NCBI GenBank assembly: GCA_040954595.2
Contig: CM082582.2
Span: 4,324,303 to 4,388,302 of the forward strand
Direction of reading: 5' to 3'
Source of the DNA: Balanoglossus misakiensis
Taxonomy: Eukaryota > Animalia > Hemichordata
DNA: 64,000 bases
Shown here: positions 15,064-53,125 of the stretch, in pieces
Layout of the letters: each line of letters opens with the position of its first letter
How positions within the stretch are numbered: position 1 is the stretch's first letter
The notes under the pieces: generated by a model
Database searches by the model: none
What the model saw: only the letters and a program-made list of their open reading frames with translations
What the model was told of the DNA's origin: nothing
Made by a program: the position numbers and the translations under genes

Positions 15064-15330
15064 TTACACAATTCCTTCTACAGCGATGCGTTGCCTGGCA
15101 ACTGTATCATACAGATAGGCGACATCATGTGATGAAGGCTTCGAAAGTGGGGGTGGGGGTCGGCATCTCCTTGTCTGACACTGGCAACAAAGAAACCGCT
15201 GGAACAAGCTGACAAATAGAAGAAGCTCATGCTTGGCCCAAAACTCTCCCAAGCACACGCGACGTCCAGCGGAGAATGGAAGAAAGCTCTCGGGCTTGGG
15301 CAGAGAGGTCTTGCCGTTCCCGTCCTGGAT
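15064..15330 (-). pseudogene. Cytochrome P450 (clan 2-like) C-terminal fragment
   Basis: [34 protein letters not shown] contains the heme-thiolate motif FxxGxRxCxG. The reading degenerates after FQRF, and no other P450 exons are recognisable nearby. Confidence 0.75.
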
Positions 15331-15518
15331 GTAATTCATATCATAGTTCTTCCAATGTTTTTCATTCATCCAGCTTAATAACGCGGCAGGTTTAGCACTC
15401 GGTTGTTGTCCACGTTCACAATTTTGGACATTTTCCACTTGGCAATGGAGAGGATCCATGACTTGCCACTTCTGAATGTGTCCTATTTCAGGCATGCGCA
15501 GTGATGCCACAAAGTTCT

Positions 15519-17198
15519 TTATTGGTTGATCTCAACCAAGGGTATATCGTCATCGTCATTGTGAACCTTAAGTTTGGTGTAATCAAATTGTTTGGTAAGG
15601 CCTACACTTCGACAAAAGCACTGACAAATCATGAAAAGTGAAGCTGTCAGATTACTGAAGTGATGTTGACGATTTTCAGTCAATTTCTTATCCCTCTTTC
15701 TTGGCAAAGCCTCCACTAGCTTCTGCCAAAATATCTTCACGTCGCCCTCATTGCCATCTTGCGGCCACTGGACGTGAGTGATGGTGTTCAGGATTGCCTG
15801 TAAACTCGCCCTGATATTTGCCATTCTGGTGATGTCTTCAAACATAATCGGGATGAGTTTCTGTCGGAGGGCAATCATTTCTGTGTGCGCCAAGGCAACT
15901 TCATAGTCGCACCATTCACTCTCCACAAATGCCGGGGACAGAACCAGAATGGTTCGTCGACTTTCCTGGATCGATCTCACTATGTTCTCCACAATGGCTA
16001 CCAAAATGAATTCAGAAAGTTAAACAAAGAAAGATTTAGGACTTCGGCAATATTATTGTTTAGTCAATGATTTTTCCATTCTGTGATAAAGCATAACTGA
16101 TTAATACAGTTTAAAACTAGACGTGGACCAAACAATCACACGTTTTGATGCAAATCATAGGTATCCCATCTCCACATACATTCTTCTAAATATCTTTAGC
16201 TTACCTTCACCTAATAGGAAATCTCTGTGATGAACACAAAGTTTGAAGCCATATTTCTTTTCAAGTGTTGGCAGTAACGTCTTGTAGACGAATTCCTCTT
16301 CTTTTGTGTTTCCTTTCACGGATACAAATGCGTCATAAAGTCTGCCATCTGCATGTGGTGGGAGACGTCAATTTTTACAATGAATAATGTAAAAATGTGT
16401 GCATATAATTCAATAATTCTCGAGTCATAAAACTAATCATTCAGTTAACAATTGAGTAGGAAAGTGTGCAATTGAAATGTGGCCATTTTAAGCAACTACA
16501 ATTCATGCGATTTTCTAAAAATTATGCTTTTTCCAAAATCCCTTTTGGGAAACACCATTTAAGGTTGCGATCATTTAAACACAGGCAGAGGAAATGTTGA
16601 TTAAATTAACAATTTGTTGTTGTCTGCATGATAAAGCTAACACAACCTGCTGTAACAAGTCGGCTTTGTTAAAGTTACCTGTACCTGTTTTGTAATAGTT
16701 TCTGCCAGAAAAAGCGCTATTAACCTTGCACTATTCTCGTATGGTTCAACTTATATTAGGTTTAGGAAGCTCTGATTTCAGCGAAATCGCACAAATTATG
16801 GTAGTACAAATGACTCCAATTGGCTAACCAATCCCTTTGCAGATTAGGAACATCATTTAATTGGTCACATTACAAAAATGGAAATATTTTGAGCTGCAGA
16901 ATGTTCAGAGAGATGCAGCTCATCAATCTCACACAACTGTCTTGTTGTGTTATCTTACCATCGTCTTCATATGGACGGAGCTTGCTGGCAATTACTGTTT
17001 GTATTTCCCTTCTATATCGATATCCCAAATACGGTCCGAGTACACAAATTGTGCACATTACTACACCCAGCACCGAGAGTAGAGTTATCATTCCTCGTGG
17101 AATCATTTCTGTAATGCAACCGAATATCAGAATGGTTAGAACATATATGCAGTACAAATGCTGACTTACAAAATAGATTAGGTCGCAAAATGTACGCG

Positions 17199-17245
<47 letters not shown>

Positions 17246-20200
17246 TGTATGTATGTATGTATGTATGTATGTATGTATGTATGTATGTATGTATGTATGT
17301 ATGTATGTATGTATGTATGTATGTATGTATGTATGTATGTATGTATGTATGTATGTATGTATGTATGTATGTATGTATGTATGTATGTATGTATGTATGT
17401 ATGTATGTATGTATGTATGTATGTATGTATGTATGTATGTATGTATGTATGTATGTATGTATGTATGTATGTATGTATGTATGTATGTATGTATGTATGT
17501 ATGTATGTATGTATGTATGTATGTATGTATGTATGTATGTATGTATGTATGTATGTATGTATGTATGTATGTATGTATGTATGTATGTATGTATGTATGT
17601 ATGTATGTATGTATGTATGTATGTATGTATGTATGTATGTATGTATGTATGTATGTATGTATGTATGTATGTATGTATGTATGTATGTATGTATGTATGT
17701 ATGTATGTATGTATGTATGTATGTATGTATGTATGTATGTATGTATGTATGTATGTATGTATGTATGTATGTATGTATGTATGTACATTGTATGCTTGTA
17801 TGCTTGTCTGTCTGTCTGATGTAGGTAGGTAGGTAAGTAGGTATGTAGGTAGGTGAGTAGGTGGGTACTTCAGGTAATTATTTAGACATTATACCGTTTA
17901 CTGTTATAGTAAATTCACAAATAGCAACATTGTTTCCCTCGTCGATTGCTTTGTATATCACATTGTGATCGCCATATCCAAACATCTGCCCTGGTCGGTA
18001 GTTTGAAGTCACGTTGACGTCATCTGAATTGTCTGAAACTGTGGGTTCTTTCCAAGTTACCCTGTTTCTGTTGACGTTTCCACTTGGCGTAAGTACCATG
18101 TTACTGGGACAGTCGTCGAATACAGGTAACTCTATATCTGTGAATATAGGAATATAAACCGAACTTTCTCATAGAAAAAAGTAACTTAGTGACCAACACG
18201 GATTTGGAAATATTTTTGAAGATTTGTGTGACCAGGGTGACAAAAATGCCCCCAAATACCATTAAGAATTTTAACCGAGAATTTCAAATGAGTTTTCTCA
18301 TTCTCTCTACATTTCATACAATGTTCATTTTTTATCCCATTCCCTACAAACCATGTGACTCTGTGTGCATGTTGTCTGATAGCCATATGTAAGAATCAAG
18401 TCTTTGGACCATTCCTGGAGATGGGTAATTTTACTCACTTGATAATGGGTGGATTGAGTAAGCATATACCAACATTCCCAGCACTTTCCCTAAATATGTG
18501 AGAAATTTGTGTGTGATGATTTACCACCGCCTCTAGAAAAGGCTACTTGAATTATGATGAATTCGAAAGTTGCTCATACACGTAAAGACCCATATAAACC
18601 TATATGAAAATACAATGTAAACATGCATCTACGATCGAACTAACGTAATTGTAATACAGCATGTTGTTAGCTATTTTGGCTCGCTAGATACATGAAAAGA
18701 TACTTAATTTAAATACATTATATGAAACATCACTCAGTTTTGACCACTGGCCCTATTAGCGTAAATGATTGAATTAAAGCTTACCGTTTGAACATCTGGT
18801 ACCGATCCAGCCTGGACGACAAAGGCAGCCGAGATATCTGTCACAGGAAATGCTTTGATCACAATCGCATGTTTCTTGACACGTGGCTCCCCATTTATTC
18901 GGACTACATCCTTTATAGACAAATGACAGCATATACATGTTGGAAACCGGACCTCCTTACAAAATGTACGACAATGTTACTCCACACATGATATTGGAAA
19001 AATTGGAACTTTGCAAGACGTCACGGGGGCAACTTCCATCCCTCTTATAGACAGGAGAGTGAAAAAACTCGCCAAAATGAATAATCGTGGGCAAGTTTTT
19101 ACTCTCATATCATACAAGTGGGATGGAAGTTTTGTGTGGTTGATCATTGATTCACTATATATCCACAACCAGTGTCTTGTATCAAACATAATTAATGAAA
19201 AAGGGGCAGCTGGAGAGAGACTTTGTCCCTTTAATAGTTAAAGTTTTTGATGCAAAAACCAGGGTTGTGAGCAAGCAGTCATAAATGCTTTTCAAAAACT
19301 CGTATTGGCCTTGTGAAATTAAAGTCAGAAACATTAAAAACATGTCCAGTAGTGACAAAATATGATTCACGACAAAGCGTTAATTATGACAAATGAGTGT
19401 CCACATACAGAGGCACCCCACATAAATCATAATTAATGTAATAATTAACTTGATACAATCTTACGATATAGAGGCGTTTCCAGAAATGATTTACAATCTG
19501 TAGAAATGAATTAAACAGTGATATTCCGGTAATATATCAACACCTAGGCCAAAGCAAAGACATATTTAAAACATACCATTGACTACAAGCCTGGCCGTGT
19601 TCCTGGACCGGAGTCTTCGTCCATTTTGTCTATCGAGGACCTCACATTCATACACACCAGAATCTCCGTCCATGGCCCTCCTTACATAGAGAGACGATTG
19701 TCTGTGGTGCAGACACAGTAGAGAGGGAGGAATGATCGTGTCCAAGAACAACAAAAACTAGTGTCAGACACTGTGCTCCCATTTGATCAGTCGTGACATA
19801 CATTTAACGTCTATAACAGTTGGACTAGACTTGGTATGCGTTGCCGAGAGATGTCAGACTGATGCAAATACAAGTAATACGGCTTAATGGTGAGGATTTT
19901 GAAGGATAAGGAATATATTTGAAGCATTTTATTGTGGAAAAAATATGTGAAATTTAGCAGCTCTAGAAGCTTCAATCAAGGCAAAATTAATTAATCGGAA
20001 AAGCATGTTATCGGAACCACGTATTTTGGATTGTCCATGTGTTTCTCATTTAAACGCATGTAAACAGATCATATTGGAACTTATTGCATGGAAAATTGTG
20101 CAAATGTGTACGACGTAGTGTATCCTCATCCGACCGACACCATTATTAGAGCTATCAAACTCTTGATTTGCCATTCTAGTCGTGAGCAGAATTCTTACCC

Positions 20201-23200
20201 ATCATCGTCGACGTGAATGTCAACAGTTTCGCTTTCTTCCACCACTGTCCCATTATGATACCATATCACGCTCTCATCGGTGGCGGCGCTAATGTTGAGG
20301 TTGTAATGAGTACACATCAGGAGTGTATAACCATCATAGCCAACGCTGGTCATGGCTGGAAGGATGTCCACGTATGCGAGAGCTGTAAATGACAAGATAC
20401 ATCGTGTGGGCCAGGATGGGAGCCAACGAGCATGGATCGAGTATTGTAATTCTCACGTGTGACCAGTAATAAACCAGAACTTTGTGTATAAACTCGGAAA
20501 ACCTTTGGTAAGTCTCTGTCCACGAAAGGTTTACGATCTGCCAGGTATCTCTCCCAGTGCGCGAAGATAATGGGTGGAGAAGGAGATGAATAGATTTTAC
20601 ATTCTCAGCCTTCTAACGTGGCCGATTCCCCACAGAAGCCCCGACGAGGTAAACGCCCGAAGGATGAGGTGTAACACTAGCAACTGTGTCGTATGGAACC
20701 TATACGAGCAGCCACAACGAAGACCCCACCCTTTAAATTCAATGTAATACACAAGTTTCATAAGTCCAGCGCCCTCACGCAGCCATCATGAATTTGAACT
20801 CAAAGCGAGGGGGAAATCTCCTTGATGTGATTGGTCAACTTTCCACATTGGCCTCGCTCTGAGTTCAAATTCATTATGGCTGCGCGAAGGCGCTAGACTT
20901 ATGAACAGGGTTATTACCTTGGCAAAATGCGTTAGAAAAAGCATACATGACTTTTCAGGTGGACAAAATCAGTTGAAAGGCACTAGTTGAAGGTGACTTA
21001 CCAACATCACATGCGGGTCCCGCCCAACCCGGATCACATTTGCAGGCCCCGTTAAACGCATGACACGTCCTTGGATGCTTGCAAATACAATCCTTGTCAC
21101 ACTTGAAGCCGTATTTACCCGCTCTGCAACCTGTATCAGCAGAGAATGACCAAACTGTTGTCGTGAATACAAGAAGGCAAATATGTACAAATTCTCATCT
21201 AGGTGAGTTAACTTAATCGCCATCGGTGTCCACGAAGCGCTGGGGAAAAGTTTAATGATTCTTAGTACGTTAGCATCAAACATATACACAGCAACACACT
21301 TTTTATCTGTGACACTCTTACTTTGCAAAGTTATAGACAACGATGCATTAAACAGCACTTATAAGCTACCATAGATACTTGAGTATAGATGGGTTAATTT
21401 TTCCAGAGTTCCCCAATATAATGTTTTACTAACAAACACTGAAATGTGTCAGTTTAGGAATTTGAAACGAAACCATGATAAGTATAGTTTTTCAAAAATG
21501 AAAATTTTGAAAATAAAAGTTAAAATGCGAAAATTGAAATCGATTAAAATTCAATGTATGGGACGACTGTCCTATGTTGCGACATTTGGACCCCTTCTCT
21601 TTGTTTACATTCGTCACGTTTCTGGTAAATGCAGTTAATTCTTGCTACCTCAAACAGGATTTTGCCATAGGTAAGCGAATGAATTCATAATAATAAAATC
21701 TTGCCTTGAGGGCGAATCTCAAATTTCCCTGCGGCGATGTTGCTGTCTGTAATACTATTGATAAACCGGAACGATCCCTGATCATCTTCATTGGTTAATC
21801 CGGTAACTGTCACTGCCATAACTATGTCCTCTTGAGAAACACGTTCAATCATCGCCGCATGGATGTTTGGATTTTCAGTTATAGCACTGTCGTTCTGAAA
21901 ATATAAGGTGAAATTGAACTTTTCATAGTCCTGGATCTTCTCGTGTTCGAGAGAAAAAACACGGTGATCTATATTTAAGAAAAAGATTGCCTATGTCGAC
22001 CTACCTACCTACCTACCTAGGTATGAGGATACATGAGTATCCAAATCATCACGAGATTAAAATGGTGTCGCCCGTCTGCTAAATTGACGTATTTTATCGT
22101 TAAACTCTGTGCCTTAAGTGGCAGCTAATGTTCCATCTTGCGAAGGGTCAAAGCTTTTGAAATACCAATTACATGAACTCATGGGTTATATAGTGTGAGT
22201 TCCATTACATATCCCCTCTCAATATAGGAACTATCATGCCTTACCTTGTCAAAATTTTCTGCCCGAAAATGTAAACCTGCTAATGTCCTAATTTCAATCT
22301 CGTAAACTTGGTGTAATTCTGCACCGCCTTTTGCTGTAGTTGCGAAAAATATTTTCACCACACCTAGGAAAATGACAATTGTGATACATTTTAAAAAGGG
22401 AATGATAACATTGTCATCGTTATCCTCGTGCTTTTGCATAATTTTCCCGTTTTTGCCATTTTTCCCACTTTTCCCGTCGCGTCCTCCTCATGATGTGAAA
22501 TTCTGAAGTTCCCCATCAGCAGTGACTGATATAGGAATACAGCAATTATCAATCAGTCCACAACTTGACCAGACGACCTTGTTCACACTTTCGGTCAACC
22601 CAGTCCTAAGCCCGTTCAACTTACATTCTCCATTGTCAGAATCGACATCAAATAATGAATCAAAGTTCTGTTTGTCCTCGACTGATAAAAACCTCTCCAA
22701 TATCGACTCGTCTCTCGGTATGTCTTCCTGTTGTTTTAAGCGAACATCATACAACACTCTCTAGAAATCAGAAAAAAATCGAACATCATCACTATTCTTG
22801 ATGAAAGCAAATACGTTCAAATATCTTGTAGCAGGTATGCACCTTTCGCTTACTTTGACTTGCAAGCAACTGTGTCGAATGGTCCGATACACGCAGGCGC
22901 AGACGGGACGACACCCACCCTTTCAATTATGAGAACGACGATGACATATTCTGCCACCACGTGGTATTTACGACAATGTCTGTTCAGTGCATGGACGTGC
23001 TCGTCAGACCGGCTCTGAAGGATGCAACTCTAGACTATAGATCGAGATCATGTCAGTCCTTACCAATTGACGTTCATAGGGGCCTGTCCAAGCATTCAAT
23101 GCACACGTTTCATTGTAGAATGGAGGCCAGTTCAGTACATTGTTGATGAGAATAGTTACAACGACAAGACAGTGGGTGGCGTCATCCTGCAATAAAAACC

Positions 23201-24524
23201 AAATTAATGCATCTGGATGAACCCTGGGAGAAGACATGTCCAGGACATCAGCTGAGTTTTCTGGCGTCGAAGTCTTTCATTGATGTATACGTGTGCATAC
23301 GTGTGTATATAAGAAGCAGTCAAACCTCGCATCAACGGTATAGTAAACAACGTATGCAACCTTCGGACACTGAGAAAAAAACATTCAAAAATAGTGAAAC
23401 AAAACGCCTGTAAAGAGGTACCTTTGTTAAGCAGTACGTCCATTGTGAGATTAGAAAGAAGCAAATGACCCGCAGTGTGCAAATCAAATACAGGACAGTG
23501 GAAGACAGGGAATGTGGTTTATTATTGCTTTTGACAGGTGTTCAGAGTGGACCGAATGTATCCGTGAGGTCACTATATCTTATAGGCCTACCTACCTTTT
23601 CAATTCGAATGTGTAGTTCATAACGATTATCTATGTCGTAATCCAAAAGTCCCGCCAAGGAAACCACTCCTGATTTGTCGGCGGCAAATCTGTGATGCTG
23701 TCACGTGACAGGCGTTCAATTAAAACAAAATGAAACAGTTTGAAAGTAAGAAATCAACATTAGACGTCAGAATACCATTCCCATTTCTATGGGTACAAAC
23801 AAAGGACATTTTATCAGTGCCCGAAACTATTTATTGGTAAACAAATGCATGGGATGCTCCATAAAAGCTGTAACTTGTATACTACTTTGTGTACCCACTA
23901 CGGTTTCTGTTTCGAATCGTTATAACAAATAAGATGAAATACTTATTTAGCTTATCAACACAGCCCATCAATGTTGATTGTAATGGAAATTATGTCGTAC
24001 TGAGGCCCCAAAATTGTCAAGCCTTAGAATGATGAACCTTGGACCAGACCGTCAACTCAAAGCATAGGGAGCTCGATCTCCAAAATATATTGGGACTCTG
24101 TAAAGTTGCTGTTGTTGTTGTTGTTGTTGTTGTTGTTGATAATGATAAAAATGAGATATAATCAATAAAAATAAACGTATCGATGGTCTTACCTCATCTC
24201 CCATTTCTATCATGACGTCATTGAAAGTGACATTTTCGCCACCCAGAGACACAACCTCCGTCCCAACAGGGACGTCCTACAAAACGAAACACGGTTATAA
24301 ACTAAGATCATAAAAGAGCATAGTGGCCACAGTAGAATAAACTTGACAACGGGAAAGTTCAACTAAACGCGTCCGAATTCCTTTTGAAATTGCAATGGTT
24401 AAATAACAAAATTGCAACTTGCCTCATTGATTGATTTGGTGAAGTTCCCGGTGTCAGATACGCTTGTTGTTGTACCGAGCTGGAAGAGAATGAAAAGAGC
24501 TTGAACGAATACACACATCTCCAT
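15519..24524 (-). CDS. Cadherin-EGF-Ig-EGF-HYR-TM-TIR receptor, paralog 1 (15 coding exons)
   Basis: Exon 1 24423-24524 ([17 protein letters not shown]...NFTKSINE); cadherin DVPVGT / LLDYD / NVLNWPPF (~24277-23060); three unknown exons (~22760-21706); [18 protein letters not shown] (~21001-21131); Ig (~20198-20384 and ~19576-19700, DSGVYECEV); EGF (~18785-18913); HYR (~17894-18138); TM (~16959-17108); TIR YDAFVS...CVHHRDF (~16205-16348) and SEWCDYE...FW (15519-~15998). Confidence 0.88.
17199..17785. repeat. (TA)n followed by a very long perfect (TATG)n microsatellite, about 570 bp
   Basis: Direct reading; lies in the HYR-TM intron of paralog 1 and produces the spurious YIHT/MYVC ORFs. Confidence 0.98.
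20757..20905. repeat. Foldback/MITE-like element with ~50-bp imperfect arms
   Basis: TTCATAAGTCCAGCGCC...GAATTTGAACTCAAAGCGAGG is mirrored by CCTCGCTCTGAGTTCAAATTC...GGCGCTAGACTTATGAA. Confidence 0.65.
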
Positions 24525-24651
24525 ATCGTCAGTTTGAATGGAGCGTGGGAGTCAGTGAAAAGTGTTCGGTCAGCCAGTCCGGTCGACGTCACAGACATTC
24601 TCTTCGCTCGTATCAACACTATGCAGGAAACATGTGAGCATTATGCAAAAA

Positions 24652-24661
24652 GGGATTTTCC
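24652..24661. promoter_or_regulatory. Candidate NF-kB/Rel site
   Basis: GGGATTTTCC matches GGGRNNYYCC, about 130 bp upstream of the paralog 1 ATG. A single short match could be chance. Confidence 0.25.
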
Positions 24662-27533: not shown

Positions 27534-30500
27534 ATGGCATGGTTGCAAATGTGTACTCTGAAAATCACACTTTGTGTGCTATCACTTTCGCTATGGGTCA
27601 CAAGGTCCGTGGGAGCAAACACCGCACTCCATTGTAAAGACTGTAACTTCACTCGTGCCGTCAACGAAGTAAGTACATGTAGTATTATAGCCGGCATGAA
27701 GGCTGCCGGTAAGGTTTTACTTGCTTCGCTTTTACGCTTTTTTGGATGGGATTATGAAAGAAAAAATATTGAGCAGAGCGACGATATCTTTCCTGGCCAT
27801 GCCGCAAACACACTATAATTTCGCGATCATAACAATACTGAGCGTGTTAGGAATTAGGGTAAGTCACTTTCTGAGATTTTTCTTTCCATTCAATTTGCAG
27901 GACATTGATGTTGGTGACCAGATCTTCAGGTTACCTATCGCTGACGTCACTGATGTTCGGCGTGTCGTCTTGGAAAGCGGTAACGAGGCAAGTGTTTTGA
28001 ATTGTTCACATCGGTTTAACACAATATGTCTGATTCGTGGTAGAGTTGGAAATTGTTCAAAATTTTACCTCTTCCCTCTTCTCCCCTCCTTCCGTCCATC
28101 TGTCCATCCATAGTCAGTCCATCCAACCACCCACCCATCCACCTATCTATTATTTACGTATCATAAACTAACTAAACTTAAAATTAAATGTGTCTGCAAC
28201 TTCACCAAAACATATTCCAGCGACAATGACTTTAAGTGTTATAAAAAGTAAAAATTGGGCTTTAATCATGCGTGATATTTCACAAGCTTTATACCGCCTA
28301 CTCCGAACTGCGTGCATAGGCATTCACGATGAGACAAAACGTCGCACCAGTTTATATTCTCAATTCGAAAGTCTATATAATCGGGATGGTGGTCAAGAAC
28401 ATATTTACAAGATTATAGGTAGATTTGCTAGTACTTGTTTGTATTGAAGACCATTGTCTTTTATATTATTGATTTATTTATTCGGATGGCAGCTTGGTAA
28501 GTGACTTTTGGCCAAGTACCTGGTTAATTGTTTCGATTTGTGATTCGATTTCCAAGAAATAAATTATCATTTATGTCAAGCAGTCTTTGTATCAAGCAAT
28601 CATTTATGATTATATACGCAATGATTACCCAATTTACATTTTCACTTTTGTCAGAATGGTCAGTTTTCCATCAATCAACATGGAGTTGTTTATCTTGCCA
28701 AGCTTCTCGATTACGACATAAGCAAAGAGTATCATCTTCTGATATCTATTTATATGGTAAGTGTTTTCAGGCTTCATCATCATATCCCATGCAGATAGGC
28801 ACACACACACACTCGCACTAACAACTGGTGGTACCCGCTCATTCATGTGATCAACTCATGAGAGAACGTTGGTGTTTATAATTGAAATAAGTTATTGGCG
28901 TTAACTTGTTATTTTCCTTTTCAGACAGATGGCATTAAAGACAATCTAACTTTAAGTATAACAGTTAATGACGTCATGAATTGGCCTCCAGTTTTTAACG
29001 AGTCATGTGCGCTGCCAAGCAACAAGACTAACAAGGTATATTTCATTTGCCAACCTACATTACCAGTCTTGCGTGTCTCCCTCTGTTATTCTAGTTTCAT
29101 ATTCAGCTTGACTTGTATTACTGGGTTAGGAACCCGTTGCTACGGCAATTAAAAAGTCTTGTACATGTATATATAATAATCTTCGTAGCATGGCAAAGAC
29201 CCAATAACTTTTATTATTGATACAGGATGACGTTTATATATTTTTCTTTCTAGGGGCTACTTTACAATATTCTTGTAGGCAAAGGACATACACCCTTAGA
29301 GACCCCCCTGATGCTTTTAGAAGACAACACAATCATGGACGCGTTTTACAGCAACACTTCCAATAGTGACTGTACGTATATACACAGAAATAATTATCAG
29401 AATGCTTTTTCTGGCAATCAGCTCAGCTCTACACATGTCTTAGTTGGAACTGCGCCACCCTTACTTATTATATACGATAATACCACATACCCCCGGTACT
29501 AGATTTTTAAATTACAATATTAATCTCAACCGCTGTAAAATGAAGTTGTTTAATTGGACGTCAGTCTAATGTTGCTCCCAGTGGCTGGTGAGGTTGGTAC
29601 ACGTTTACTCGGTGATTTCAATCTGTAAACTATCCAACCTATCCAAGTACCTCAAAACCCACGCAACTTACAGTGAAGATGCAGCTGGTAGATCAGATAT
29701 GTACTATTTGTACAGTATGTAGTCTGATTAAATGGGTGCGTCATCTATTCAGTCCTTTTACCACTAGAAAGAACTTACCACTCACTATATGTTTCCCATG
29801 CATGTAAGTTATTGACATAAACCACACTTGTTGATTCATGATCAGCGACACCATTTAATAACCATGTAAAACATCCATTCACAGGCAGTGCATATTTATA
29901 TTTTGTTACAAAGAGAGGCAAGCACAGCGTTGCACAATCCAATCACTTCAACGTCCAATGCGATAACATGATCACTATATCTATCGAAGTCTTACCAGTG
30001 GTAAGTTTTACCCTTTTCTTTTCCGTTAGTATTAAATTGAGATATACCGGGTTGCATAAAACATATAAAAAGCGAAATTCCACAGCAAAGAATGTGAAAG
30101 TTTGGAGGACGATTAGTGCTCAGAAAATGTAGTACGCTACCTTAAATTATATTCATCTTGTATTTTAACCTAGTGGATGAGTTGTTGTTGATAAACACGA
30201 AATTCGTATGATTCAGAAGGACGTCCTTGTTTCATATTAAAACATACTGACTTCGTTCATTGTCTTCTTTACTTTAATTTCCCCAGGACAATAAAACAGG
30301 TATAGATTACCCGCAATGGTTCGATCATCCTTTGTCATATTATGTCTTCGTGCTCATCAAATTATCACCGATGCCGTTAACCGCCACAGAGGGCGTATGC
30401 ATGATCTCGACTTCCGACTTGACCTTTACGACAGAGATCACTGTTCTGCCTCTTGGTAAGTATTCAAACGTTTCTTTTCACTTTAATCTGAAGTTAATCA

Positions 30501-33500: not shown

Positions 33501-34815
33501 CAGACACGAAATACAAGCAATTATCGCTCACAAGCTTCAAGCGTATGAAGATGACGGTAAGAATGGGGACTGTAGTTATAACGTCGACGATTTTTCGAGT
33601 TTTTGATCCTTGTATCAATCCTTAAAAGCATGGCGATGAAAAATCAATTATTGTTTGAGTTACGATTAGTCCCTCAGTGTCACATGTCAGCGTCCATAGA
33701 ACTGTATGCAGCCTTGCACATATAGGTGCCGACCCCCGGGACACTTGCATTATTTTCAAATACGGGGGTAGGGTGGGAGCAAGTTCAAAACATCAACCCA
33801 TGTACATGTATACTCCAAACATTGACCCATTGTTAGGGATTTCTTGATATCCTCACCGTTGTGTAATACCATTCGTTTTCTCGAATTATATTGATCAATA
33901 TGTTAAAAACTGATTCTATGTGTAATTAACACGCATATCACATCCTTTTGCTTGGACTTTAGATCAGAGAAAATTCGATGCTTTTGTGTCAGTGAAAGGT
34001 GATACTGCTGAAGAGGAATTTGTCTACAAAATATTACTTCCGGTTCTTGAAAAGGAATATGGATATCGTCTTTGTGTCCATCACAGAGACTTTGTTATTG
34101 GTGAAGGTGGGTCGCATTTATATTTTACTATAACTTTGAATTTTGGTACAAGGATTAAAACATTATCGTGCTTTTCTATCAAATATTTCAGACAGTGAAC
34201 TGATTGACTGTCTTATTTACCCTAACTTTAAGATAAATGTCATTCATTTTGCATGAGAAGGAAATCCCGGTCCTTAAGAAATGACCATAGGCCGTAATAC
34301 ATATTCAAATGACCTCGTTTTAAATTTCAGCCATTGTGGAGAACATTTTGAAATCGATCCAGGAAAGTCGACGAACCATTCTGGTTCTGTCCCCAGCATT
34401 TGTGGAGAGTGAATGGTGCGACTACGAAGTGGCCTTGGCGCATACAGAAATGATTGCCCTCCGACAGAAACTCATCCCGATTATGTTTGAAGACATCACC
34501 AGAATGGCAAATATCAGGGCGAGTTTACAGGCAATCCTGAACACCATCACTTACATCCAATGGCCGGGGGAGGGCGCTGGCAAGGAAGGCGAGAAATTTT
34601 GGAAGCGCTTGGTGAAAGCGATGCCCAAACGAAGGAATAGGGTTGTTCACGCTATGGATCGTCCGCCGTCAAAATACAGGTCGATCAGAAATCGCTTCTG
34701 TAATGCTGTTTGCCGTTTTCGAGGCAACTGGAACAACAGACGTCGGAATGACAGCGTAGAGTCGGATCTCGGTGCCGATGACGAGATCCCGTTGATGGCG
34801 TTAAATCATTGTTGA
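27534..34815 (+). CDS. Cadherin-EGF-Ig-EGF-HYR-TM-TIR receptor, paralog 2 (15 coding exons)
   Basis: Signal exon 27534-27668; cadherin exons ~27901, ~28655 (LLDYD), ~28925 (DVMNWPPVF); unknown exons ~29254, ~29885, ~30287; EGF ~30898; Ig ~31301 and ~31746 (DAGIYECEV); EGF ~32108; HYR ~32929; TM ~33413; TIR ~33963 and 34331-34815. Confidence 0.88.
32450..32622. repeat. Dispersed repeat, second copy at ~38485-38627
   Basis: Both share CTTCGATATCAAATGACGTCAGACGC...CGTTGGCATTCAAATTTCCA...GCTGATGAGGCACC...CATGTTACGTGT. They lie in non-homologous introns and in opposite orientation relative to their host genes. Confidence 0.75.
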
Positions 34816-36138
34816 TCGGATAGATTATTTTCCGCTCGTCAAACGTTGTGTCGCGCGTAGTTAAATTTTTTGCCGTCTTAATACAGATCCAAGATGTTTT
34901 GCAGTGTGTTATCTTCAGATGTATTTACAAAATTGCTGAATTTATTCCGTAAAACTGGTTTAAGAAATGACAGAAATCGTGATAGGCAGTTTTTAAATAC
35001 AATGTCTGTGAGTGTTTTAACTTACCTACGACCAAAGAATACTTTCATAGCTGTGCATAATGCATGTTTTCCACTGTGCTTCACGACACACATCGCCACG
35101 AAAATAGTGATTACTGTTGTTATTTTCACATCACCAAAAAAATGGAAATCGTTATAAATTAGGTGCTGATATTTTGTACTATGTTTTATAGTCCATTTGC
35201 ATCGTGAGTGACTATATACAATAGTGTTGTGACATTTTCTGAAATAATTTAATTTACTGATCGTCGTCGTCGTCAACAACAACAACAACAACTGTTATCA
35301 TTTCTCAGCATACATTCCAAATTGTTCATTCATCGCAGTATAACAAAATACAACACTCACACATACTCGGCTTGTAAATCCCAAGTAAAGCATAAAAGGT
35401 ATAGTAGGGTTGCATCTATCGATATATTTGTGCGCAGTTCGTTTACTTTCTTTTGTACGACAAACTGTTTCACAAGATCAATATATATATATAAGTGTAA
35501 AATCTATTTTATGCAATAAATGTAACAAAACCAATGAAATAATATCAATATTGCGTCATTATTAAGTTAAAACGAATACCCATGATTACTATATGGCTGG
35601 TGCTGGAAATATAAATAAATCTTATTTGACAAAGATGATAGGACTTTCCATTAAAATAAGATTATTTAAGTATAGCTATAGCTATATGAATATTACAGAT
35701 TTACAATGCCAGAAAGGTATTTAAAACGACTCTTTTTGTGAAAAAGGTTGATTTATTTATTATATCACTTTCTTCCGGCAACATACGTCACAATGACATC
35801 ACCACATGGCAGTGATAACAATATTATATGCAAAGCTTAGCAAACCAATCAATGAGTCTTTTTATAAGACCTCTACACAAAATGCAATGTAAAATACAGC
35901 GGACCGCCTAAGGCATACTCTACCAAGATATCATAAGCCACTCGTTGGCAACAAAGTGAATATACAAACTGCAAACAAATTACATGTACACTGTACCACT
36001 ATACGTATGGGGCGGTGTCAACATTACATTGGTGGAATAACCTTGAAACTTTTGTACTTTCAAGTACACGCTTTTACTGTAGCTGTTTGTGCTCAAGCGT
36101 TTGCTATACGTGAAGCTCACAACGGGGAATATTCTCCT

Positions 36139-39100
36139 TTAGGCCACGTGATCTTCTTGCAATATCAAAGGAGCATCGTCACCAATGACGTCATTCAATA
36201 TATCACTTCCCGACGTTTCCTTTTTCGGCCAAAAGTTGCGAAGAAATTTGGTGAACGATGAGAATGTATCAGGAGAGTTCTGGCGAGCTGGCGATTCAGG
36301 TTGTTCCTCGTTTTGATTTGGATCCTGTGGTTTTCGCTTTCTGGGCATTGCCTTTACCAGGCGCTTCCAGAATTTTTCGACGTCCTTTTCCTCGTTTCCC
36401 TTTGGCCATTCAATGTAAGTGATGGTGTTCAATATTGCCTGTAAACTCGGTCTAATGTTGGCCATCTGGCTGATGTCTTCAAACATGAGAGGAATTAATT
36501 TCTGCCTGAGTCCAACCATCTCCTTGTGTGCCATCAGAACCTCGTAGTCACACCATTCACTGTCCACAAATGCCGGCGACAGAATTAGAATCGTCCGTCG
36601 ACTGTCTTTGATCGACATTATGATATTCTCAACGATGGCTGAAAGAATGAAATACAGCAGGATTGTCAAAGAAAAGAAGCACGTGTTTGTTTATCTATGC
36701 ATTTTATATGTTTTGATGTACACTACGATTGTGTGAGTGAGGACACTGAAACTTTTGAGGTATGTATATGTAGACATAGCCTAGTGGTTTTAGCCACGTT
36801 TTTATGTGCGGTAAGTCTGAGTTCGAATACCATTAAAAATGTCCGCTTGAAAATTACGTTCAGAACATGAAGGTTCACGTAGGCCTATTTAATATTGTGA
36901 GAGTTCTTCACGTGCAAAGCCATTTTGCAATGATTTTTGTGGTGGTCTGATTTTGGATTTCATTCCAAAGTAATTCAACCCGGCTTGAAAGAAAAAAAAC
37001 GCCACAGGCCACCGGGGAACATAAATATTTATTTTGCGTTTTGTATTTATTAATTATCATATAGATCCCCGAGATACTAACCTTCTCCTATGATGAAATC
37101 TCTGTGATGAACGCATAGTTTGAAACCATATTGTTTTTCCAATGTAGGCAGCAATATTCGATATACAAATATTTCGTCATCTGTGTCACCTTTTACCGAT
37201 ACAAACGCATCGTATCTCCGACCGTCTGGAAACAAAATGTTCAAGACACTAAGTAACAAGACAGGTCAACTTTAGTGTACAATGACCCACGCATCTGGAT
37301 TGTAGGGCAGTGACTCGTCATTTGTATATTTTTGAATGTCGAATGCAAAGACAACATCGTCGAACGTAAGTATATATTAACTTACCATCGTCTTCGTATG
37401 GTTGGAACTTTTCTGCTATAATTGTCTGAATTTCGTGTCTGTATTTGTATCCCAAATATGGACCGATAACGCACAGTACACAGATTAAGAAAGCCAGGAT
37501 AGCCAACACTGAAATAACAGGCGTCGATAGGACGCCCTCTACAGAAACAAGATGGAAGAGATGGAGAAAAGTGACAAAGAATATTGAAGGGCGCGGCCAA
37601 GGGTTTTGGACTTTCAAAGCACTCGTATTTTTCATTATATTCTGAATATGTGGTATAAAGTATACCAGGGGTATTCTTTTATACAGCCTCGAGCTTTTTG
37701 CCCTACATTCGTGTAAAAACAGTAATGGTCATGTAAATCTACACTATAAAATAAGAGATATTTCTATCGACTGAAAATATACCGGACAGGTATTTTAGCA
37801 ATTGGAAAGACTTCAGATTTCGTATGAGGGCGCTGTAATCTATGGGACTGTGCTTGTGCAACTTGTGCGCGTGCACCAGATCCTGCATTGGCGATAAAGC
37901 ACAAGTCTAAAATCTTCCGACCCTACCTGGTTTATTAACGGTGACAGAAAAAACACACGTGGCCACATTATCGCCCTCGTCGACTGCCCTGTAAATAACA
38001 GTGTGAACTCCGTAGTCAAACTGCTGCCCCGGATGAAAGTTTGACGTCACGTTGAGATGTTTTGAATTATCGCTTATGATTGGCTCTTTCCAGGTCACTG
38101 TGAAGTTTCTCACGTCTTTTCCAGGAGACAAAACGATATCGCTCGGACAGTCTTTGATGGATGGTTTCTGTATGTCTGAAGGTAAAAAAATATACATGTT
38201 TTGCTGGTCAACGACATGTACGCATATATCAGCAATATGTATAATTCTTGCCATTTCAAACATAAATCTCATATTAACGCTGGTATAGGAAATCATCAGA
38301 ATTGGCCACACGATCTATTTAGAATCCATACCGTGTGAACAAGTTGTTCCGTTCCAGCCTGGTAAACACAAACATCCTTTCTCTCTGTTGCAGGGGGCGC
38401 TGTTCTGACAGTCGCAGTAGTGTTCACAAGTTCTTCCCCATCTATTGTCAGCACAACCTGAAGAGGCACAAAAGTGTTACATATTCTTCGATATCAAATG
38501 ACGTCAGACGCAGTTCCGTTGGCATTCAAATTTCCAACTTCAGCAACGTGGTGCAGACGACGACTGTGCAGACGGAACGCCATGATGCTGATGAGGCACC
38601 GTGTCTGATGCATGTTACGTGTCTGGCATATATTTCCGTGATCCCTAAATTACTCGTATCTTAATTCAGCTACATATTGCTAAAACGAAACCATGACAGT
38701 ATTCGACTCACCTGTTACAATGACTTGGCCATGTGCTGTGTGTATCCGTCCATCTATATCAATAACTTGACATTTATATTGACCAGTAAAGTTATCCACA
38801 ACATATTTTGAACTCAGTGTAGAATAGCTACATGAGAAAAGAATAACAAAATTATATATTTATTGTTTTTGTAAGTTTGGTCTAGAGCAGTTTCCAGAGT
38901 CTGTGTATTACTTTTTCTTGGTGTGTTGTGCAGATTCATTCGCATTTGGACTATCCTTTTAAAACATTGATAAGTTCCACGTCAGATGGCATGCATTTTC
39001 CCCACCAGCGCTCATGCCAGCAGTTTTTACTGTGGACATCGAATCCAATCTGGTGGCGGTAGTTCCAAACGAAACCTACCCCTCATATTTTATCCATAAA

Positions 39101-40765
39101 ATCAGATATTGTCTCATAACAAACACCAGCGTGATATCACAGGATTTAGGAACAATTAACTGTATCTTAGTAAACAATAGCCAAGTACACTAATTGCATG
39201 TATGCACACGGGAGCATCCACGAAAGTGACAATATCCAAATACATGTATAGTATGTATGCACACGGGGGCATTCAGAAACAAAACATTGTTGCCTTGGAA
39301 AACTAAAAAAAAAACAAGTATTCAATATGTCACAATAAACGTACCCTTCCTTACTGCTATGGACGTAGAAACGTTGATCGTTACCAGTGATCGCACTGTT
39401 GTTGAGATACCAGGTGATGTCTTTGTGCCGATCTGAAATCTGGATATTGTAGGTATAGCAGAGTACTGTCAGTAAACCTCCATACACCGAATACGACGTC
39501 TTGGGGGATATTTCGATACGGCTGATCTCTGAAATAAATGGCATTGACTTTATCATAAATTATGAATATGGTTTGTGCATTCTTTAAAAAACTATATACC
39601 ACCAAAAGTACGTGACTCTTATATCCACTGTTAACAAAAATTCAATAAAAGTAAAAAAGCAAGATGCGATTAATAGAATCTCACACTCCCAAGGACCTGG
39701 GATCATATTTCTCACACGAGTTTGAGATTTTCTGTCCCACACGAGCCGCAGTACAAAACAACAACATCTAACAAACAAACAAACAAACTACTTATGTAAC
39801 AAAAACAATAAAAACACTCACAACTAAAACAAATAAACAAACAAACATATGTAACAAAAACAAAAACAAACAAACAAACAAACAAACAAACAAACAAACA
39901 AACAAAACTACCTATGTCACAGGCAGGCCCTGTCCAACCATTTGTACATTGACAAGCGCCATTAAAAGGATGGCAAGAAGCTCCATTCAGACATATGCAG
40001 TCCTGGTCACATTTGAAGCCATATTTACCCGTCGGACAACCTACAGAAAATAACGGTGATAAAGCTGTAAAGGCCATATTCATTGTGTCTAAAGAAAGTG
40101 AAGTACAACGAAAGCAAGACAAAAACCTGTAGAGAGTTATTTGCGTTACCAATCTTTAGAAATTATTTGACTGTAGGCATTGCAGAGGGCTGCCAGTGAA
40201 ATCTTTTCCCAAAGTTGTAAGATGGCATGATTATTTTTCCCTCATATGTTCATGTATTGCGTCTGATGCGTTGGAAGAACGTTGTTCAGCTTGTTACAAA
40301 GTACCACTAGTATTGCTAAACTATTACGCATGCCTATTCACCTTTTGAATAATTATCTTATTTGTTCAGATCAAACTAGACATGAAATTAAACATGTATG
40401 CTTGAGACATGAGACATGTGTCGTTCTACTGATGACAAGTTCAAACGAGGACGAAAACAAGAAAGTTCACAAACCCTGTGGCACTATTTTGGTCGACAGT
40501 GTTAGTAAGGCTGTACCAAAAGGTACAAACACCACATCGCAAACTCCACTGTCTATTTCATTCACCATATGCGCCAGATTAATGATGACAACCATGTCGG
40601 CATCCTGGGGCTCCTCGAACCAACTGCGATTGATGTACGGGTTACCGTCGAGGGCGCTATCGTCCTGAGAGTTGCAGAAAAATAGAGATTGTTTGACCTT
40701 GGGAAATAGCTATCATTTCTGACAATTCACATTCCCTTGATATGAGTGATATAGCCCTCATGTCC

Positions 40766-40803
<38 letters not shown>

Positions 40804-40865
40804 TCAGCAGCAGCAGCAGACAGACAGGTAGGCAGGCAGGCAGACAGACAGACAGACAAACAGGC

Positions 40866-40898
<33 letters not shown>

Positions 40899-43800
40899 CA
40901 GACACACATACATGCATGTAGACACACTAACCGGTGTTAATATCTGTGCTGTTACACCAGTTCTCAACTCCTGGCCACAATGTAAACGAAACTGTTGAAG
41001 TGTAACTATTCCCATTTTACCATGATGAGATGCTAAATATATAATTGAGTTGCCTGAAATATTAGAAAGGAAACATATTAATTAAACTTTAGCTTAGACA
41101 TGTTAGAAGCTAACTCGCTTCGATTAAATTTACAGTCTATTTTTCATTCGAAATGTCACGAACATTAATGTACCATATACTTAACTCATGGGTTAATTGA
41201 CATCGTGAACTGACACTGTGTTCTGTTAGTGATCAATAGAGAAGTATGAACTAATATATATATACATTTTTCATTTTACATCTCAGCCTATTTACCGACA
41301 AACTGCAGTTTGTTGGAGATAACCGAGACAACCCTTACATTGACTGTTGTCGGAATCGACGTTGAAAAATTGCTTCATATCGTCTGCATCTTTGAAGAGT
41401 ACTAATTCCTCTATCGGTTTCAGATCGTCTCCTTGCCCGCCATAAAGCTCGTAAAGTAACGCCTGTCGATAAAATTCAAATACACAACCAGTCAGCTTGC
41501 AGTGGGCGAAGAAATTGTGCAATGACGTCACCATTTATAACTGCATTGACGATAATTACGGCAGTTCCCGTATTTTTTCCTTTACACACGGATTGTTGCA
41601 GGATATCGCTTGTCCCTACTATAATGAACGGCACACTTTCTGCAGGAAGGTCTTTGATGGCTGAATTGTTGCTTCACAGTAAAATTATTAAAATCAAAAG
41701 AATCGGGAACTTGTATCAGCAAATTGCGACAATGCCAACCCACAGTATATATTGCAGCACTTTACACAGTTAGTAAAGTAGAATGTGTTTTGAAAATTCT
41801 TCAACCTGAGACGCTCGTCAAGTCAAGTCAAGTCAAAGCCAAGACCTTGCAGTTTTCTGAGCGCTGAAGGCGAAAACATGAAAACACCCAGTGTATATTT
41901 TGTGTTGGACTCGACTTGTCATATACTTACATCCGGGGACTCACTACCAGCATGCCAAAAGCATGATTGGTTGAAAACTGGCGGCCAATCCTCTACGTCA
42001 GTGACAACCACAGTCAACAGAGCAGTATCATATGTGTTGTCTTCCTGTTAAATAAATGTTCAATATTGCTATTTTATCGCTGACCAAGAAGGCAAATTTA
42101 GGCAAAACAGTCAGTCAGATATGGCATATGGTATTATGCCCTTTTCTCAACAAAATGCTTGTCCCATAATAGTCCATTTTGTCCACACTGAAATTGTCAG
42201 CTGTGCGCAATTCTTTTCATTTTATTCTATATTTTCTCTTATGCATGATCATATTCTTTCAATGCTGTAGGGAATTCTGTTTATTGTCACCTGAATCCCG
42301 CAGAGCTCAAATTGCCAAAGGGAAAACAATACTGTTTGTTGTGGACAAAGCCGCTACTCTTCTGAGGTCGGTTATTATTTTGTGAAGAAGATATCCAGAT
42401 CACACATTATTATACTGTTTGGTGTATTTCGGTTACCTTGGTTACGGCTATATGCAGACTATATTCGGATTTCATGCCATAATCCAGAAGCTTGGCGACG
42501 TAAACTACTCCAGACTGGTTGACAGAAAATCTGTCGTTCTAGAAAATGTGTCGGAATGATTAAAAACATTAGGTGTATTCATTAGTAGTTACATTCATTA
42601 AAGTCAGTCTATTGATCACTAAGGCAATAGATTATACACGCATTACCAAGTTTGTTAGAAAAACAATGGTAATAAACTTTTTTTGAGTCCATATCTTATG
42701 CATAGCACCTCCACTTTATATATTTCCATATGGCAAAAATGGCGTATTCTAAAGAAGAAATGGTGGCGCTCTTTTTTTTCTCAATTTGCCTAACTGTTGC
42801 TAAAATTGCATTGGGACGGTACATGTATATTGATGTAGCAATTGAGAATATCTAATATTTCTGTATGTAAAAGAAATGAGTTACAAGATAAGCAAAGCAG
42901 ATACACCCTGAATTACAGGGTTCCTCATGGAGATTGCGCACCAGATAATAATCTTACCAGATTTCCAGATTCTATAGACACATTTGTCACGTGGGAAAAG
43001 TTTCCAATGGGAAGGAAGAATACGTCAGTGCCGACTGTAACATTCTGTGGCAAAAAGCGAGAAGGAAAAGATAATATGCCAAATGAGGTGACGAAATGAA
43101 ACCTCGCTTTATATCGGAAAGAGTCGTAGTCTGAGATTTGTCGTGTTGATTACACAGGAAAAAATACTTGAATTCTTAGAATTCAAATCAGTGAAGAATG
43201 TAAATACTAGTAACTAAAAAATTGTGCAGTGCTACATCATTAATCAATTATATTGTCGCGTGCCGTAGCTTTATTTCCGCTTCACGATATGCTTCGCAGA
43301 ATGGTGACGCACTAGACTGTTGCCACAAATCGGCAATGATTAATTCAATTAAAGAAATAGAAACTATGAAAATAATAAGCTGCGACTAAAGTGGCTCACT
43401 TAGACACATGCTTTAATCTTTCAAATGCAGTTGACGTATGTTAACGTTTTGAGAAATCTGGCCTCGAGTTATTAATACTTCATATTCAAAAGGTCGTAAA
43501 AGTTATTGTTTGATATGAAAAGTTATTGTGTGTCTACTAGGTAGGTAGGTAGGTATTGTAATAATATAAAACAACTCCGCGTTTATAATTACTGAGTTAG
43601 GGCCGTATTTGGATAATTTGCGTAATCTTTATACATATCATTGCAAATTGGCACTTCTGTGTTTGAGTGAGTACATACCTCTTCTATATACCTCGTAAAA
43701 TTGCACTCATCACACGTTAAAACTTGAACTGCGTCACTGTTTCCTAAAATAGAAAAATTGCTTGTTACTATATGTGAGGTATGTTGACAATCCAATCCCT

Positions 43801-45596
43801 GGGTGTGTCAAGGGGCTAGGTGTTTGGATCCGGGTGACTGCACTCGGGGGGGGGGGGGGTGAGTGCCCGTCATTGTGCTAGTTAACGTTCGAGACCGCAA
43901 ATTCCAAGTCAACATACAAGGATGCCGTTTGTACAGAATACGTGAGGAAACTGGGAGAATAAAAAACAGACACAGCCATGTCAATGTTGAATAGTCAAAC
44001 TTGAATAACTGCTGTCTTGACGAGCTTTGAGATACACCCTAATCTGCATTCATTTTCGAATTCCCGTTTTGAATCTGTTGTGAAAATAGGAGAGAGAGTT
44101 TGTATTGACACGGAGCTTTATAGAGTCGTGACGTCATGTTTGCAACGACTGACGAAAGTACAACAAATAGTAATTACAATACAATATTTTCATTTTCTTG
44201 ACATTTTCACAGAAGGCGCTAAATAGAGCCCTTTTATATGAATAAAGAAAACGCAAGGAATTGATCCGTCACGTTTCTTATTCAGTTCATATCTGGTCTG
44301 TTTTGTGATAATGTCCGGTTCAGACCAAACATCCGTCACAGTTATATTGCCATAAGTCTAGGGGGTGACCCATTTGATATTTTGGGAGGGATCGGAAGAA
44401 TTTCGAAAAAATGTTGCTGCAGGCCGACTGTGTACATTGTAAATAGACGATCAGCCGTCTTGTAAAACCACGGTCACTACCTATACACACAAGCTGAAAA
44501 CTAATGTGCGTTTGGTGAGCAAATACATGCTTTTGGTTGAGTGATTTATAAAAGTTCCTTCTACGGCGGCATTGGTAAGGAAGCGTTCCCATCATATCAT
44601 TTTTGCTTTAGTTTTCTGTTGATATATTAAAGGCCGATGGTCGTCCCATGCGAACGTGCCAAACCAGAGACTCTGGTTACTAAAACATATAAAGTCAATG
44701 CTATAAGGCAGTGTGCTGGCCTTACAACAGACAAGATGGCGGCGACCATAGTCCGTGTCGGAGATCAGAAAAGGACAGCAAAGTGGGTGAAAAGATGGAA
44801 CGAAACTAAATTCTACGTATACGGTGCACATGAAATATGGGAGGAAGTGAATGCACTATATGAATGCCTCGAACGCAAAATTTTGGATTGGGTGTAATAT
44901 TTGTTCACAGGAAATTTCACACTCGGTTCACATGGTTCGCCCCTAAGCGGTCTCTGGTAGAAGCGAAAATATTTCATTGTGGAAAGATGTCTGTCATGAG
45001 TATAATTAGTTGTTTGTACTGTGCGTGTTTGCAATAAGGTGGAGCTCCGCCTCAAGACAATTCTCTCATTCCGCCATTAGTCGCTGTGTTATCTGTTCAG
45101 ACGTGACAGCTAACGGCGACCCGCAGATACGCATGTGTCAGGATTTCTTACACAATTGAAAATCTAAAGCCATCGTATGTGGACCTGACAGTAGGCCTAC
45201 TGATAGTGAGAAGAACAATGGAACCATAGTAACAACTAACAGAGGAGCGTTTTACCACAAAAACCACTAAGACTTCGAGAACTACATGCATGTATATGAA
45301 AACCACGAAAGTTTTAGCGGCGGGGGGGGGGGGGGCAACGTATGATTCAAGTATTAATCAAAGTACATGTACAATGGGATCGCGTGAAATGATCATTGAT
45401 GAAATTAAGTGACACTGGTTGAAATCGAATCAATATGTGCACAATGTATCATTGCAGTCTCTGTATCAAATGGCGCCACCGTGATTCCTACTTTTCTTAT
45501 AATACATGGGGAATGGGGAAATAGCCTATACTCACCAATGGTCGAATCATAGCAGACACAGAAAGCGAATAAGTAAATCCAAACTTCCTTCGTCAT
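36139..45596 (-). CDS. Cadherin-EGF-Ig-EGF-HYR-TM-TIR receptor, paralog 3 (16 coding exons)
   Basis: Signal exon 45536-45596 (MTKEVWIYLFAFCVCYDSTI) plus ~43679-43743 (NFTRYIEE); cadherin NVTVGT / LLDYG / DVEDWPPVF (~43044-41930); unknown exons ~41463-40474; EGF ~39912-40040; Ig ~39345-39528 and ~38712-38828; EGF ~38333-38458; HYR ~37927-38176; TM ~37386-37538; TIR ~37082-37226 and 36139-~36639. Confidence 0.88.
39770..39906. repeat. (AAAC)n-rich low-complexity tract
   Basis: Direct reading. Confidence 0.8.
40766..40908. repeat. Compound microsatellite (CAA)n(CAG)n(CAGA/CAGG)n
   Basis: Direct reading. Confidence 0.85.
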
Positions 45597-53048: not shown

Positions 53049-53106
53049 GCTGTAATCTTTCCGCTGGACGTCGCCGTTTCTGTCTCCGATGGATTTGTTT
53101 CGTCTA

Positions 53107-53123
53107 CCCACGTATCTCCACCA
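53107..53123 (-). other. Primer binding site, probably tRNA-Ala
   Basis: TGGTGGAGATACGTGGG begins 2 nt after the 5' LTR; TGGTGGAGAT is complementary to the ...ATCTCCACCA 3' end of eukaryotic tRNA-Ala. Confidence 0.7.
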
Positions 53124-53125
53124 TG

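Follow-up and report, generated by a model that had tools for sequence, protein, structure and literature searches.

We analyzed a 64,000-nucleotide stretch of the Balanoglossus misakiensis genome (contig CM082582.2; hereafter the window) that contains three neighboring, intact predicted genes, A, B, and C, encoding proteins of 811, 803, and 821 amino acids. Each protein has the same order of modules: a signal peptide, one cadherin repeat, a region referred to here as domain X, a laminin-type EGF domain, an Ig domain, a further EGF domain, a HYR domain, a transmembrane (TM) helix, and a TIR domain. The three genes likely represent a family of immune receptors that has gone undescribed and in which the ectodomains diverged long ago; we infer the immune role from the TIR domain only. 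The gene models are as follows.

Gene A, 15519..24524, minus strand: 15 exons, 811 amino acids, signal-cadherin-X-EGF-Ig-EGF-HYR-TM-TIR, based on open frame and splice sites. Exons 24524-24423, 24276-24193, 23697-23596, 23186-23064, 22760-22625, 22363-22245, 21894-21705, 21130-21002, 20382-20199, 19701-19577, 18910-18785, 18137-17895, 17108-16959, 16348-16205, 15997-15519.
Gene B, 27534..34815, plus strand: 15 exons, 803 amino acids, architecture as in gene A, based on open frame and Pfam per exon. Exons 27534-27668, 27901-27987, 28655-28756, 28925-29035, 29254-29371, 29885-30000, 30287-30455, 30897-31028, 31301-31478, 31746-31861, 32108-32233, 32928-33176, 33413-33556, 33963-34106, 34331-34815.
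Gene C, 36139..45596, minus strand: 16 exons, 821 amino acids, architecture as in gene A, exon 1 least secure. Exons 45596-45536, 43743-43679, 43044-42958, 42538-42437, 42044-41931, 41462-41339, 41053-40932, 40664-40475, 40040-39912, 39528-39345, 38827-38712, 38457-38332, 38175-37927, 37538-37386, 37225-37082, 36638-36139.

An original prediction, made from the sequence alone, had proposed three complete genes with outer ends at 15519 and 45596 and no stops. These models were confirmed: none of the three contains an internal stop, and intron phases are identical at all 14 introns shared by A, B, and C (0,0,0,0,1,0,1,1,2,1,1,1,1,1). The predicted cluster of three genes stood, with corrections to its layout: gene B lies on the opposite strand, gene C has one additional phase-1 intron after the signal-peptide exon, and three GC donors are required. 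Genes A and B are head to head, 3009 bp apart, and genes B and C are tail to tail, 1323 bp apart. All 43 predicted introns have AG at the 3' end; 40 have a GT donor and three a GC donor (A introns 1 and 7 and B intron 2, at 24417-24422, 21699-21704, and 27988-27993). This share of GC donors is high, and at each of these sites a paralog has a GT donor. Comparison of the window with itself revealed three sets of homologous exons in intron-rich, eukaryotic DNA.

Searches with tblastn, using the Ptychodera flava orthologs XP_070574189 for A, XP_070574190 for B, and XP_070574191 for C, matched 43 of the 46 predicted exons (13 of 15 in A, missing exons 1 and 5; all 15 in B; and 15 of 16 in C, missing exon 1). 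Each model could be aligned end to end with an ortholog or near-ortholog (58% for B with P0002 and 64% for C with Ptychodera P0003); the identity of C to the Glandiceps protein P0005 was lower, at 53%, which suggests that the window species is nearer to Ptychodera than to Glandiceps. Separate genes for the cadherin and TIR parts were rejected on the basis of the continuous frames and of independent NCBI models in three acorn-worm genera, which match the proposal of one gene per cadherin-to-TIR string.

Repeats occupy several of the introns. A TATG microsatellite of 650 bp and 163 copies lies at 17200-17851, within gene A intron 12. A dispersed repeat at 44649-44916, in the first intron of gene C, also occurs at 1093-1311 and 11923-12208 in a duplicated block, and a second one occurs in introns of B and C (32445-32622 and 38482-38627).

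The window genes were scanned with Pfam exon by exon, using 23 exon pieces that included part of the A and C exons; full-length domain, fold, and profile analyses used acorn-worm relatives as stand-ins. The modules are located as follows.

Single cadherin repeat: gene B exons 2-4, 27901..29035, plus strand; A, 24276-23064; C, 43044-41931.
Domain X: gene B exons 5-7, 29254..30455, plus strand, starting in the final part of the exon before; A, 22760-21705; C, 41462-40475.
EGF, Ig (two exons), EGF, and HYR stalk: gene B exons 8-12, 30897..33176, plus strand; A, 21130-17895; C, 40040-37927.
TM helix and conserved juxtamembrane stretch: gene B exon 13, 33413..33556, plus strand; A, 17108-16959; C, 37538-37386.
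TIR domain: gene B exons 14-15, 33963..34815, plus strand; A, 16348-15519; C, 37225-36139.

On single exons, Pfam recognized the TIR, HYR (E 1e-14 to 1e-16), and Ig domains; laminin-type EGF scored at about the cut-off, and cadherin was weak (E 0.005-0.16). A family profile built from seven acorn-worm relatives matched repeats of CELSR1, protocadherin-15, and cadherin-23 in the PDB (E about 1e-16 to 1e-13). Exon Pfam and the family profile together bore out the domain string of the original prediction. Each protein has one cadherin repeat, and its calcium-linker motifs are partly degenerate when compared with the canonical ones; the family shares the extracellular repeat of the cadherin superfamily and lacks the tandem repeats with full calcium-binding linkers. 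No leucine-rich repeat (LRR) family was detected in the exon scans of A, B, and C or in nine full or near-full acorn-worm relatives, and the ectodomain is wholly assigned to non-LRR modules. The receptors are, as predicted, neither TLRs nor members of the IL-1R family by ectodomain, having no LRR and more than Ig domains. A single, strongly hydrophobic segment lies N-terminal to each TIR domain. Judged by hydrophobicity only, the N-terminal stretches of A and B exceeded the threshold of 1.6, and that of C fell below it.

Domain X, of 144-162 amino acids encoded by three exons, was analyzed in the P. flava and Glandiceps orthologs. Comparison with Pfam gave nothing below E 0.09 in five of five members, and comparison with PDB sequences gave a single chance match (E 1.8). 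AlphaFold, applied to five X sequences, gave a beta-rich sandwich with a predicted local distance difference test (pLDDT) score of 64.6 and a predicted template-modeling score (pTM) of 0.62. Foldseek returned no match to this model at E 0.001. In VIA searches with the same model (pLDDT 64.6), none of 48,161 chains reached a Z of at least 8; the best matches were generic Ig/FN3-like sandwiches (Z 5.6, root-mean-square deviation 3.4 over 101 residues). An Atlas search gave sub-threshold Ig-like leads only (scores 0.75-0.76). Since the model is a beta sandwich with Ig/FN3-like structural matches, and neither Pfam nor the PDB sequences offer a match, domain X is probably of a divergent Ig-like type without an assignable family. 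A hidden Markov model (HMM) of X, searched against 1.84 billion representatives, gave seven matches: six acorn-worm proteins, three of them neither in the seed nor near it, and a bacterial repeat protein (E 6e-4) that was dismissed as chance. The X profile scores a Saccoglossus family member, P0023, at E 0.7 only; with a profile this weak even within the family, the HMM search is no proof that X is absent elsewhere.

The TIR domain is split by an intron directly after the BB loop in all three genes. The closest solved TIR domains by family profile were those of TLR1, TLR6, TLR2, and TLR10, followed by IL-1RAcP and SIGIRR (E 3e-33 to 2e-18); with the first TIR exon alone the best match was IL-1RAcP, and with the whole TIR the best matches were TLRs. 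TIR motifs of the TLR, IL-1R, and SARM types were taken from PMC7075850 (this and the other PMC articles below are cited from excerpts). The family TIRs carry both the TLR-type extended Box 2, C-x-H-x-R-D-F-x-x-G, and the IL-1R-type AB-loop pattern, E-x3-G-[YF]-x-L. They lack the BB-loop Pro-Gly (RDxxPG): the proline is Leu, Ile, and Ile in A, B, and C, respectively. It is replaced in all 10 A/B/C-type TIRs (Ile or Val in seven of seven close relatives), kept in three of four TIRs of an outer subfamily described below, and absent from a bivalve protein, KAL3869473.1.

Relatives were collected with word-based searches, so that all counts are lower bounds. The last TIR exon of gene B retrieved seven proteins among 72 candidates (three from P. 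flava, three from Glandiceps talaboti, and a remote TLR-like fragment); cluster look-up raised the number of P. flava proteins to four. The three P. flava orthologs have consecutive accessions and are placed on a contig of equal length. Proteins with the full domain string also occur in Glandiceps (XP_077982516 and XP_077978445) and Saccoglossus kowalevskii (XP_077867596), and some of the further members from these two genera form an outer subfamily that likewise has the full string. Among the matches from these searches, relatives with the entire string came from acorn worms only, and their NCBI models are labeled "uncharacterized" only. A search with the EGF-HYR-TM-TIR part gave seven matches among 2024 candidates: five hemichordate proteins, one bivalve protein, and one bird TLR. 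The best non-hemichordate match was the bivalve EGF-TM-TIR protein KAL3869473.1 (147 bits versus 64 for the TLR). An Atlas search with the same part gave TIR-only matches, topped by a molluscan cluster with some EGF. A word search with the cadherin and X region of P0003 retrieved only itself among 1397 candidates and missed known relatives, and is thus uninformative.

In an ectodomain tree, each of A, B, and C paired with its P. flava ortholog (support 100/100, 100/100, and 97/99); with two more rows, support was 100/99, 98/100, and 93/94, the last for the pair of C. Between paralogs, identity is lowest in domains X and Ig (16-26% and 26-30%, versus 75-95% for the TIR), and the corresponding values between orthologs are 33-55%, 45-57%, and 81-92%. 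A recent triplication was ruled out by same-residue codon identity of about 0.45 in the ectodomain. Since each gene has one P. flava ortholog and members are present in Glandiceps and Saccoglossus, comparison of the sequences indicates that A, B, and C are old, stable paralogs, not an array of sensors with fast turnover. Upstream of gene C and in the same orientation is a carboxypeptidase D-like gene (54237-58355, minus strand; Pfam M14). In Saccoglossus, the accession adjoining XP_077867596 is a carboxypeptidase D-like model, and the two are mis-fused in an older database entry. This neighbor indicates a neighborhood conserved between the window and Saccoglossus.

The original prediction had contrasted divergent N-terminal regions with conserved TIRs. 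That pattern is present, and the likeness of the A and B TIRs is likely explained in part by gene conversion and not by selection alone. The tract concerned is as follows.

Inferred gene-conversion tract, 15762..15997, minus strand: gene A last exon, the part of the TIR domain that follows the BB loop and extends to approximately strand E.
Partner tract, 34331..34566, plus strand: gene B last exon, 10 mismatches to A over the first 236 exon bases.

Within the tract, 224 of 234 nucleotides are identical between A and B. It is the sole self-match of at least 85% over at least 60 bp within 15,000-46,000, and both the preceding intron and the sequence 3' of it have diverged. Codons for the same residue are identical at 63 of 69 positions in the tract, compared with 78 of 170 in the ectodomain. 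For the first 77 residues that the last exon encodes, protein identity is 95% between A and B and 95% between their P. flava orthologs, compared with 83% between orthologs. Sites following the species pattern versus the ortholog pattern numbered 6 and 43 in the ectodomain and TM helix, 8 and 0 in the tract (Fisher p 1.8e-6), and 0 and 5 after it. Approximately unbiased (AU) tests in the tract rejected both ortholog pairs (p 0.006 and 0.005). The simplest reading is that gene conversion likely occurred separately in the two lineages, that of the window species and that of P. flava. Assembly collapse was ruled out by the 10 differences, the diverged flanks, and the same pattern in the P. flava proteins. 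Set against conversion are the choice of tract ends after the BLAST match had been seen, which makes the p values post hoc; a nine-row tract tree in which no branch was resolved; and a P. flava comparison at the protein level only. In mammalian TLR1 and TLR6, the TIR domains were likewise homogenized by gene conversion in different species (PMC2077338).

The window contains several other features. Between gene C and the carboxypeptidase D-like gene is an intact-looking Ty3/Gypsy-type long terminal repeat retrotransposon with a C-terminal chromodomain (46333-53645). It has one frame of 1755 codons (gag, protease, reverse transcriptase, RNase H, integrase, and chromodomain) and two terminal repeats of 520 bp with 100% identity to each other, which indicates a very recent insertion. 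The element begins about 740 bp upstream of the gene C start codon and could affect the gene C promoter. Directly after the gene A stop codon is a relic-like cytochrome P450 C-terminal fragment (15067-15531, minus strand; Pfam E 1e-8). Positions 1-14600 form a large inverted duplication with many blocks of 71-95% identity, centered near 6100-7100; by eye, we take its exon-sized frames to be arylsulfatase B-like, and Pfam found nothing in six exon-sized pieces of it. Exons of an FAD-linked oxidase (FAD-oxidase_C), presumably D-lactate dehydrogenase-like, lie at 61665-63078 on the minus strand.

For the function of A, B, and C, we favor, with a probability of about 0.5, a model in which a ligand at the cadherin repeat and domain X clusters the chains, and the TIR domains then act as scaffolds for immune or stress signaling, relayed either by a partner chain or by an adaptor that is not MyD88. 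The cadherin and X unit, held distally on the EGF-Ig-EGF-HYR stalk, would bind a ligand fixed for each paralog; binding would cluster the predicted single-pass chains; and their TIR tails, in a scaffolding and not an enzymatic role, would engage an adaptor on the route to NF-kB or MAPK. Other steps are weaker. Chains without the proline may need a proline-bearing partner, such as the outer subfamily could provide, or a non-MyD88 adaptor. Through recurrent conversion, A and B may retain interchangeable TIRs in the half that faces downstream, as in TLR1 and TLR6, so that two different sensors may feed one output. Several observations count against this model. The full-length predicted structure has low confidence (pLDDT 54.7). 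The TIR of the bivalve protein was placed inside the ingroup (98/95), in a tree with long branches, one mollusc sequence, and two outgroups. Conversion between inverted neighbors can be neutral. Proline-less TIRs may signal, as in TLR3, or be inert, so that the motif does not discriminate. Toll-type TIR receptors also have developmental roles (PMC2858798).

This last point bears on a possible alternative, in which A, B, and C are developmental receptors coupled to contact or adhesion: the cadherin tip and stalk would bind cells or matrix and the TIR would report position or damage, as in most fly Tolls. Every ectodomain module is of adhesion type, the family is small and stable with orthologs and a conserved neighboring gene, and the proline-less TIR speaks against plain MyD88 recruitment. 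However, a single cadherin repeat with partly degenerate linkers makes classical homophilic adhesion unlikely, and the paralog ectodomains are highly divergent. Divergent N-terminal regions beside conserved TIRs had been taken originally as a mark of variable-ligand sensors. Fast-evolving pathogen sensors under birth-and-death evolution, like sea-urchin TLRs, would fit the 16-26% identity of domain X between paralogs, the recent P. flava duplicates P0001/P0008 and the several loci in Glandiceps and Saccoglossus. This proposal has been weakened and now appears improbable, since all three genes have a strongly supported P. flava ortholog, none of the three copies in the window is broken, and the family genes found per species are few (a lower bound).

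Other roles can be considered from the TIR sequence itself. IL-1R1 also lacks a BB-loop proline and depends on IL-1RAcP. By a similar, independently evolved logic, proline-less A, B, and C might form a two-chain, cytokine-receptor-like TIR system built from adhesion modules. The three would recognize ligands through a new cadherin and X module and pair with a proline-bearing accessory paralog of identical architecture to recruit MyD88, and recurrent conversion would preserve the fit of the A and B tails to the partner that they share. We regard this version as doubtful; the split in the proline between subfamilies makes such a co-receptor model directly testable. Loss of the proline in 10 of 10 close members could instead indicate inhibitory or decoy receptors, similar to SIGIRR or ST2, that would sit alongside TLRs and withhold adaptors from them: TLR4 and TLR2 are disabled when this proline is substituted, and TLR3 lacks it (PMC2852602); SIGIRR is among the PDB matches. 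Activating TLR TIRs rank above SIGIRR in that same list, however, and a large, conserved, multi-domain ectodomain with three retained paralogs better fits ligand-specific input, making decoys hardly probable. Receptor-coupled NADases, in which clustering would switch on a TIR enzyme as in SARM1, seem very improbable. The alpha-C glutamate (W-C-x-x-E) was present in 10 of 10 sequences checked, but TLR TIRs, which are not known to have NADase activity, carry the same glutamate, and it is not diagnostic. TLR and IL-1R TIRs were the top PDB matches, and the SARM-group BB motif, as given in the excerpt of PMC7075850, was not found in the family TIRs.

Comparison with known systems places the scaffold-type receptors favored here among invertebrate TIR proteins. 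EGF-TIR and Ig-TIR proteins are already known classes (PMC4346834, PMC9334734, PMC2858798, and PMC2575513), and invertebrate Ig-TIR proteins evolved independently (PMC2858798). The remark in the original prediction that the domain string was not recognized from any characterized receptor agrees with our literature search, which found no description of it in the material covered, including excerpts of PMC11087794 and PMC5549309; the surveys Gerdol 2017 and Tassia 2017 were outside this search and could list it. The excerpt of PMC8662601 counts hemichordate TIR families and does not name cadherin, EGF, or HYR, and the words "cadherin" and "EGF" do not occur in the main text of PMC7075850. The EGF-TIR proteins of oyster and Aplysia appear as a counted class only, and the word cadherin was not found in those excerpts (PMC4346834 and PMC9334734).

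A, B, and C have the EGF ectodomain, TM helix, and TIR of invertebrate EGF-TIR receptors. Like the family, the bivalve protein KAL3869473.1 has EGF repeats, one TM helix, a similar juxtamembrane stretch, and a TIR without the BB-loop proline (E 2e-37, with 43% identity across the half that matched); unlike the family, it has no detected cadherin, X, Ig, or HYR. This comparison suggests that A, B, and C represent a branch, within acorn worms, of the EGF-TIR receptors of invertebrates. They share an intron-split gene, Ig, TM helix, and a TIR with the IL-1R-type AB-loop pattern with the IL-1R family and Ig-TIR proteins, whereas the IL-1R ectodomain is Ig only and theirs has one Ig beside five other modules. 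With TLRs they share the extended Box 2, and they differ in lacking LRRs and the BB-loop proline. With SARM1-type NADase TIRs they share the glutamate without the SARM-group BB motif.

The family does not amount to a novel type of system, since the shuffling of domains onto TIRs has been well documented among invertebrates. Immunity has been studied less in hemichordates than in any other deuterostome phylum, and a small, conserved, non-LRR TIR family in this sister group of echinoderms would be a third way of joining a sensor to a TIR. Within the EGF/Ig-TIR kind, the family forms a variant for which we found no description in the material covered, with the unclassified domain X, a candidate ligand-binding module; a proline-less TIR; and probable repeated TIR conversion. 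The A/B tract would be a clean second case of concerted TIR evolution of the TLR1/TLR6 type. In both pairs, neighboring paralogs appear to have had their TIRs homogenized independently per species while the ectodomains follow orthology, over about 78 codons in one TIR exon in A and B and about 300 residues including the TM helix in TLR1 and TLR6 (PMC2077338).

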